A stretch of 64,000 nt of DNA from Scenedesmus sp. PABB004 (Eukaryota). The stretch lies in the NCBI GenBank assembly GCA_014905635.1, contig JABVCE010000009.1, positions 620,001-684,000 of the forward strand. Direction: 5' to 3'. The notes under the pieces are model-generated. The model did not search any database. It was given only the letters and a program-made list of their open reading frames with translations, and was not told the DNA's origin. A program made the translations under genes and the position numbers. Within the stretch, counting starts at the first letter, position 1. Each line of letters starts with the position of its first letter. This document shows, piece by piece, positions 13,349 to 14,203 of this stretch.

Positions 13349-14203
13349 GCTGGGCCCAATGGGCCTGCACCAGCGCGTCGTGTTTGGCAGGTGCGCGCCA
13401 GGGCGTTGGCAAAGAGGGGCTGCGCGCGCTGACGCGCCGCCGCACCGCGCACCGCTCCGCGGCCGGCCACAGCCGCCCGCCGCCCCGCCGCGCGCCCGCC
13501 GCGGCCGCAGGGCGCCCGCCGCGGCCGCAGGGCGCCGAGCTGCGGCGTCGTGCTGGAGCACCTCTCCATCTCGCGCCAGCACGCGGCGCTGAGCGTCGCG
13601 CCCGGCGGCGGCGTGCGCGTTGTCGACCTGGGCAGCGGGCACGGCACCAAGCTCGGCGACACCTGGATCAAGCCCAACGCCGAGCGCGCGCTCGAGCCCG
13701 GCGCGGCTCTGCGGTTCGGGCGTCGACGCGGGCCTTCCGCCTGCTCTCGGTCGAGCGCGCCGCGCCCTGAGAGGCGGCGCGCGCGCGCGGGGGCGCGCGG
13801 GGCCGGGCCCGGGCGGCGCGCCCTGCCCTGCTTGCGCGCTCCGCCGGCGCGGCGGCGGCGGCGGCGGCGGCGGCCGGCGCAGTGAATGCGGGCGGCGCCG
13901 CCGGGCAAACCGCAGCAGCGGGCGAGACCCCGGTCACTGACGGCGGCGCCCGCGCCCGCCGCCGCAGCACTTCAGCCCAGCCGCCGCCGATCGTTCGCCT
14001 CAGCGTCCCGCCGGACCCGCCTCCGCCCTCCCACGGGCCTGCCCCTGCCCGCACGCGGCCGGGGGACACGCCATCCGCGCGCCATCCACGCTCCCCGACT
14101 GTGGGGGCGCTGCCGCCTTCCCCTCGCGCGCCCCCCGGCACGCGAGCCCGCCGGAGTCTACGCACAGCGCGCCGCGCTGGCGGCCGTGCCGCGGGCAGGG
14201 CGC
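13349..14203 (+). pseudogene. Inverted segmental duplicate of 20397-21236: decayed 3' FHA exons plus the intergenic/upstream region of the DnaJ gene
   Basis: Near-identical reverse complement of 20397-21236. The copy has a 1-nt deletion near 13720 (frameshift), a 20-nt tandem duplication of the splice acceptor (13492-13531) and no 5' exons. Confidence 0.92.

Follow-up and report, generated by a model that had tools for sequence, protein, structure and literature searches.

When an inversion arises from staggered breaks, the single-copy DNA at its ends is duplicated in inverted orientation, and insertions gather between the duplicated pieces, as described for Drosophila (PMC3355041). In the Drosophila mojavensis inversions 2h and 2q, single-copy DNA lies inverted at both ends of the block, one copy is intact and one truncated, and insertions separate the duplicated pieces; a change of promoter is discussed for that system (PMC3355041). 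The structural features of these inversions recur at the locus of the green alga Scenedesmus sp. PABB004 that we describe here. In contrast to the fly case, the block comprises two genes in 6 kb and not a chromosome segment, several such pairs occur per Mb, and the block stands in its original orientation, so that a flip back is needed. Repeated flipping between inverted repeats has been documented in humans (PMC3961182). As in the human case, inverted repeats surround a block of a few kb and bear signs of exchange, and both orientations are found, here among the members of a class of similar loci, the present locus being known in one orientation. The repeats here differ from the human ones in that they are gene spacers of 0.2-0.9 kb with 87-94% identity.

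The block at the present locus borders on an array of microRNA-like hairpins. In Chlamydomonas, non-coding RNAs as well as the UTRs and introns of genes give rise to microRNAs (PMC4817775), and young microRNAs are thought to stem from transcribed inverted repeats (PMC5511227). With the Chlamydomonas precursors described in these two papers, the array shares imperfect, lineage-specific hairpins and the presence of AGO and RNase III genes; it differs from them in having 11 mutually unrelated hairpins in 2.1 kb, which are known from sequence alone. The word "cluster" does not occur in the available text of PMC4817775. The polycistronic microRNA clusters of animals likewise consist of several stem-loops close to each other, probably on one transcript, whereas the members here are candidate hairpins of a green alga and share no sequence; the review in question describes clusters of Drosophila and, in a brown alga, two (PMC12026948). 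Polycistronic genes are common in green algae, and polycistronic read-through occurs there (PMC7896298). For Sphaeropleales, we found no paper on such clusters or on nuclear repeats of this kind in the partly available literature searched, which covered few subscription journals.

The DNA analysed (the window) is a stretch of 64,000 nucleotides with a G+C content of 78% on contig C77; the genome searched comprises 40 Mb in 80 contigs. Four genes follow each other in tandem on the minus strand, namely an FHA fusion gene, an ERdj3B gene, an M17 aminopeptidase gene and a gamma-glutamyl hydrolase-like (GGH) gene (Table 1). The best named relatives of the DnaJ protein are the ERdj3B/DNAJB11 proteins of Scenedesmus, Monoraphidium and Chromochloris-type algae (71-79%), which identifies the source of the genome as a green alga of the Sphaeropleales. 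Read along the minus strand, the order is FHA gene, spacer c, DnaJ, aminopeptidase, m1, a 2.5-kb hairpin block, c inverted (c'), m2 and GGH. GC donors are frequent between positions 9500 and 26500 of the window (5 of 30 hand-placed introns). A metagenome scan with DnaJ gave 15 loci, the best of them 56% identical, and neighbour genes were common to none. For positions 13000-21500, no RNA run was listed; the one run listed, a DNA metagenome that shares 7% of the words, contained pieces from a close relative on neighbouring exons and, among the matches listed, none over c, c' or the array.

Table 1. Positions of the features of the locus and of related loci. Plain numbers refer to the window; C1, C13 and C77 denote contigs.
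Feature	Position	Strand	Remarks
GGH-like gene, outside left arm	10798..13096	-	exon vs PDB gamma-glutamyl hydrolase, E 0.012
m2, copy of aminopeptidase last codons, stop and ~20 nt beyond	13298..13339		abuts outer end of c'
c', inverted copy of FHA-gene 3' end and ERdj3B upstream spacer	13349..14203	+	90.5% identity
c' copy of next-to-last exon tail (41 nt)	13350..13390	+	1 synonymous change; alignment
c' copy of last intron	13391..13530	+	donor intact, acceptor duplicated; alignment
c' copy of last exon (FHA core, Pfam FHA)	13531..13769	+	1-nt deletion at 13720
c' copy of 440-nt spacer (presumed FHA 3' UTR, DnaJ promoter, leader)	13770..14203	+	mosaic, 0-12% divergence
Array of 11 microRNA-like hairpin sites, mutually unrelated	14388..16526		stems 26-50 bp
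Intron-like spacer between hairpins	15021..15186	+	score 16.7, weak; antisense control 1 in 11.9 kb
Far end of array block, T-rich on +	16520..16760		A26, T48
m1, aminopeptidase stop region itself	16742..16782	-	TGA at 16763-16761
M17 aminopeptidase gene, within bracketed block	16761..19040	-	Pfam
ERdj3B/DNAJB11-type DnaJ gene, within bracketed block	19295..20392	-	one exon, 365 aa; protein relatives and domain search
c, source, end of FHA fusion gene and spacer	20397..21236	-	ends 4 nt before DnaJ ATG
Rhodanese-like/dual-specificity-phosphatase/RS-rich stretch/FHA fusion gene	20833-23412	-	Pfam for domains
Inverted spacer copies, GATA gene	C77:592102-592761 / 596257-596895		195-nt identical core
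Inverted spacer copies, kinase gene	C77:827483-828103 / 831455-832069		297-nt identical core
Inverted spacer copies, jacalin-domain gene	C77:874647-874804 / 878156-878324		copy 68 nt past stop
Inverted spacer copies, zinc-finger-like gene	C1:1066310-1066777 / 1071467-1071952
7-stem cluster between guanylate-binding-protein gene and small gene	C1:1198972-1200083
3-stem low-GC cluster between two divergent genes	C77:743864-744125
2 hairpins in enlarged pyruvate kinase intron	C13:1008922-1009225

Self-BLAST of the window returned c and c' as its sole long repeat, with c' as the reverse complement of c over 872 alignment columns; the two copies lie 6.2 kb apart. No third copy of c was found in the 40-Mb genome, where matches beyond these two copies were short and GC-rich. 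The absence of further copies and the content of the segment, a gene end plus a spacer, ruled out that c and c' are the arms of a transposon. In the alignment, homology stops at GGCAGGGCGC, ahead of the DnaJ ATG at 20392; a continuation into the DnaJ coding start was rejected, as its score was reached by 260 of 400 controls. On the other side of the spacer, the copy takes in the last exon, the last intron and the tail of the next-to-last exon of the FHA gene. The first hairpin starts at about 14390-14400, 190 nt beyond the end of c'. Comparison of the array with DnaJ and aminopeptidase, of which it might have been a decayed copy, gave scores inside the control range. These results agree with the sequence-only reading of this DNA, which had described a local inverted duplication of the last FHA exons and the whole intergenic region that ends 4 nt before the ATG and leads into a hairpin array about 200 nt further on.

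The coding part of the copy had also been described as decayed, which was borne out with respect to length changes and not with respect to substitutions. Besides the 1-nt deletion, the splice acceptor is doubled by a 20-nt tandem duplication, with AG ending at 13510 and 13530. The coding part is nevertheless the best conserved segment of c': it contains 3 substitutions in 280 nt, all of them synonymous, and 62 of 62 residues are identical up to the deletion. It is not decayed by substitution; the two length changes alone break it. The absence of non-synonymous changes at 201 sites departs from the non-coding rate expected for a neutral copy (P 0.011-0.026) and does not differ significantly from the synonymous sites alone (P 0.083). 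In total, c and c' are separated by 30 substitutions and 16 indel events. Per segment, the substitutions amount to 1/41 in the exon tail, 6/121 in the intron, 2/239 in the last exon and 10/116 after the stop, followed by 0/77 in block A, 8/67 in the middle segment and 3/161 in the proximal leader, the borders of the latter three having been set after viewing the alignment. The non-coding parts of c' appear no more conserved than would be expected of a neutral copy of a constrained source.

The longest identical run between the arms, which involves the last exon, is 196 nt. With 46 differences spread over 838 columns, a run of this length is unexpected by permutation (P 0.0003); it is partly owed to selection on the source exon. 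Identical runs of 195 and 297 nt are present in the inverted pairs at the GATA and the kinase gene, respectively. Other local duplicates, including direct ones, also show mosaic identity, with blocks of 100% next to blocks of 50-80%. The simplest cause of the mosaic and of the identical runs would be exchange (gene conversion) between the arms: long identical runs would stand next to diverged stretches because the arms kept exchanging sequence.

The duplication is not an isolated case. Local inverted pairs, with arms 150-30,000 nt apart and a GC content under 0.86, were searched for in 884 kb taken from C77 around the window (464 kb), from C1 (220 kb) and from C13 (200 kb). Seven pairs were found, two of which are gene duplicates. 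In the remaining five, the upstream spacer of a gene recurs in reversed orientation past the enclosed gene or genes, at a distance of 3.4-6.2 kb, and in three of these the copy also includes the last codons of the preceding gene. The kinase, GATA and jacalin genes were named via Pfam; the zinc-finger-like gene and the flanking genes were read by eye. The enclosed gene is opposed to the upstream gene in two of the five pairs (kinase, GATA) and in line with it in three (DnaJ locus, zinc-finger-like, jacalin). The former arrangement is that of a classic inversion scar, the latter would correspond to a block flipped back, and these two states are what a crossover between the arms would interconvert. 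The distances from arm end to ATG across the five pairs are 4, about 12, 309, 310 and 342 nt. No spacer-type pair was detected in the 200 kb of C13, and none of the other four pairs encloses a hairpin cluster. Without the present locus the class amounts to 4 pairs in 884 kb or 4.5 per Mb (95% range 1.2-11.6), in a sample that is centred on this locus and in which four of the five pairs lie on its contig. The spare copies at the kinase and GATA genes face the 3' end of the gene and are potential sources of antisense transcripts. An inverted repeat of about 100-130 nt was noted by eye ahead of the BiP gene (C10:735000-736900), where some 650 nt separate its arms.

A second, short repeat is specific to the present locus; no equivalent was found at the other four spacer-type pairs. 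The direct copies m1 and m2, identical at 33 of 35 positions in the core and at 37 of 42 overall, bracket c' and the array. Among control pairs, 7 of 150 scored as high when the search space was wide and 1 of 300 when it was narrow. The joint between c' and m2 consists of a short overlap and about 10 additional nt, which is not significant alone. The sole plus-strand TGTAA within positions 10000-24000 is located in these extra bases (13341-13345). TGTAA is reported to be in use in Chlamydomonas and Chromochloris, unlike its rarity here (35 in 464 kb), and was dropped as a poly(A) signal for mapping gene ends for this reason. An extra base in m2 furthermore produces a GTGAG that resembles a donor and is followed by strong acceptors, at 13169 and 13138 (13324-13138, minus strand); a GGH 5' UTR intron from that donor would place the GGH start in or beside c'.

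With regard to the origin of the copy, we give about even weight to the view that c' is the breakpoint duplication of a small inversion whose arms were kept alike by exchange. The ancestral order would have been FHA gene, spacer c, DnaJ, aminopeptidase, m and GGH. Staggered breaks over c (855 nt) and, at the stop of the aminopeptidase gene, over m (about 40 nt), followed by rejoining of the block backwards, would have doubled both pieces. The FHA gene and c would then have been followed by an inverted m, the reversed block of aminopeptidase and DnaJ, an inverted c, m and GGH. A subsequent crossover of the two c copies would have flipped the block back, with the result that c is inverted, m is direct and c' is joined to m2. 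The 2.5-kb hairpin block would represent an insertion exactly at the other, c-to-m, junction, and the c arms would then have continued to exchange sequence by conversion. Thus, one event and one flip would account for both repeats and for the c'-m2 joint. As the DnaJ-aminopeptidase block is in line with its neighbours, the flip back must be assumed. Two of the five pairs argue against an inversion, since their arms end 4 and about 12 nt from the ATG, closer than random breaks give; in addition, the ancestral order was deduced without an outgroup. The absence of a second short repeat from the other four pairs and the control pairs that match the m1/m2 score in the wide search also count against it. 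The same end state would also result from a single templated insertion, in which template switching copied m and then c backwards and the hairpin block was captured or pre-existing. The short overlap at the c'-m2 joint would fit such a process, as would the A-A-A' and A-A'-A repeats in hairpins H2 and H3/H4, which are typical of fold-back copying. We consider it rather unlikely, since it explains neither the two orientations among the class members nor the fact that the spacer ahead of the enclosed gene was copied in every case.

The lack of amino-acid changes, the retained donor and in-frame acceptor and an in-frame ATG (13359) located within c' 10 nt from its left end could also mean that c' encodes, or lately encoded, a short FHA-only protein, in which case the frameshift would be of recent date or due to an error in the assembly. 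Indel errors are conceivable in this assembly, as an AP2-like exon at about 1203420 of C1 is frameshifted in a G run, which may be an assembly indel. The residues upstream of this ATG are absent from c', so that the product would, we assume, miss the first two strands of the FHA sandwich; moreover, there are two separate lesions, and gene conversion explains the identity equally well. We therefore regard such a protein as improbable. If indel errors are taken further, c' as a whole might be an assembly artefact, which is hardly conceivable, as its 30 substitutions and 16 indel events follow the exon-intron structure and four similar pairs exist elsewhere in the 884 kb. Breakpoint duplication by inversion is the origin to which we give most weight.

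By its anatomy, the array is a candidate microRNA cluster. Its hairpins are long, imperfect and unbranched, with folding z values of -4.9 to -13.4 in 12 of 13 segments picked by eye. A general folding scan was swamped by GC-rich stems and was replaced by a composition-weighted scan, in which the array holds 8 of the 18 stems of at least 30 bits in the 884 kb. Rfam gave 19 matches to the array, none at the gathering score, and Pfam gave no match to seven of its open reading frames. Near-perfect targets or sources were sought for four of the 11 hairpin arms, and outside the array no match below 3 mismatches was present in the genome; with 3 mismatches these arms had 2, 12, 0 and 10 matches, compared to 0, 1, 0 and 0 for reversed controls. 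The genome contains three Piwi-domain (AGO) loci and four RNase III matches at three loci, including one tandem pair. Smaller groups of stems occur on C1, C77 and C13 (Table 1). The seven-stem cluster on C1 lies between diverged direct copies of a spacer (128 of 195 positions identical; 1 of 300 controls), and this repeat begins at the stop of the upstream gene, as the m repeat does here. A direct repeat of the local spacer, about 130 nt long, brackets the three-stem cluster (111 of 151 identical; 0 of 300 controls). An inverted promoter copy was found at none of these three loci. Three overlapping weak GC-rich stems at 5658-5778 of the window were left out of the cluster count.

The strand from which the array is read was assessed by folding, G-U pairs and splice sites. 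Seven of the 11 hairpins fold better on the minus strand and four on the plus strand, and G-U pairs number 21 on minus and 17 on plus (P 0.63). Hairpin H5 has five G-U pairs on plus compared to one on minus and is 18.7 kcal/mol more stable on plus. For the intronic pair on C13, the G-U test gave 9 to 2 for the known host strand, and in the C1 cluster five of seven stems fold better on the strand of the flanking genes. A splice-site model built from the 30 hand-placed introns gave two candidates on plus and one on minus at a score of at least 16 in the array, two of which overlie hairpins. High-scoring splice pairs enclose H8 and H9 (15986-16092 on plus, 16177-16065 on minus). The far end of the array is T-rich on plus, as are three of four other stretches after stops in the window, and would suit a 3' end if plus is read and a 5' region if minus is read. 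Both array strands may be used. That the array is read on minus from the aminopeptidase side is quite possible; a main promoter on plus in c', and reading on both strands or on neither, each have a more tentative standing.

The sequence-only reading had proposed that c' is a borrowed, possibly ER-stress-responsive promoter. In that case c' would start a spliced non-coding transcript on the plus strand, which would pass through the hairpins and end in the T-rich patch at about 16550-16720, head-on with the aminopeptidase gene. We regard both the start in c' and this end as possible rather than probable; the borrowed promoter can be combined with an origin of c' by inversion. The short distance of 190 nt from c' to the first hairpin, the intron-like spacer on plus, the preference of H5, the T-rich far end and the mere 3 differing sites in the proximal 161 nt speak for it, whereas the majority of the hairpins folds better on minus and the conservation of the leader is expected from a neutral copy of a constrained source. 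The direction of c' is likewise a property of the class, as c' faces the array because such copies always face the tail of the enclosed block. Furthermore, the other three hairpin clusters have no inverted copy, the other four class members face no hairpins, and the promoter role of c itself is an assumption. For stress control no support was obtained in a test that is weak by nature: none of the UPRE, ERSE, UPRE-III, G-box and heat-shock elements was found in c or c', the UPRE-III consensus being that of PMC4606518. The promoters of BiP, calreticulin and calnexin in this genome are also devoid of canonical UPRE and ERSE, so that the absence of these motifs neither supports nor excludes stress control. 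No telling word is common to c and these three promoters, and an 18-nt motif from block A had two outside matches compared to four in the control.

Conversely, the array could be a minus-strand unit that is transcribed from the aminopeptidase gene, whose own 3' end would have been lost at m, or from a start at about 16550-16750. Then c' would form its tail, antisense to the end of the FHA mRNA and to the DnaJ leader, and might feed silencing. The folding majority on minus, the parallel with the C1 cluster, where direct spacer copies start at the upstream stop and five of seven stems favour the strand of the neighbours, and the many microRNAs that Chlamydomonas makes from UTRs and introns (PMC4817775) are in line with such a unit. 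Moreover, the parts retained in mRNA, exon and leader, are the best conserved ones in c'. In total we judge the unit, including its antisense tail, as rather unlikely, given that the strand bias is not significant and H5 is strongly plus, that the sequence following the stop of the aminopeptidase gene is rich in A on minus, unlike most 3' regions here, and that the FHA 3' UTR part is poorly conserved with 10 changes in 116 nt.

The duplicate alone, without transcription data, would be a modest finding. If the inversion origin is true, a rearrangement scar known mainly from flies occurs at about 5 per Mb in a compact algal genome, and both orientations on view make the toggling of inversions and antisense promoters testable. 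Together with its kin, the seven-stem and three-stem clusters and the intronic pair, the array suggests that dense clusters of microRNA type exist in a Sphaeropleales alga. The present locus could serve as a direct test of how new microRNA genes gain a promoter. A far-reaching, speculative and on present evidence unlikely picture is that the genome contains about a hundred or more flippable cassettes, each lying between inverted copies of its own upstream spacer, and that at this locus the spare ERdj3B promoter drives a polycistronic microRNA gene of 11 hairpins. If this is true, small inversions would be a source of new regulatory RNA units, as their copies point a promoter at the tail of the cassette.
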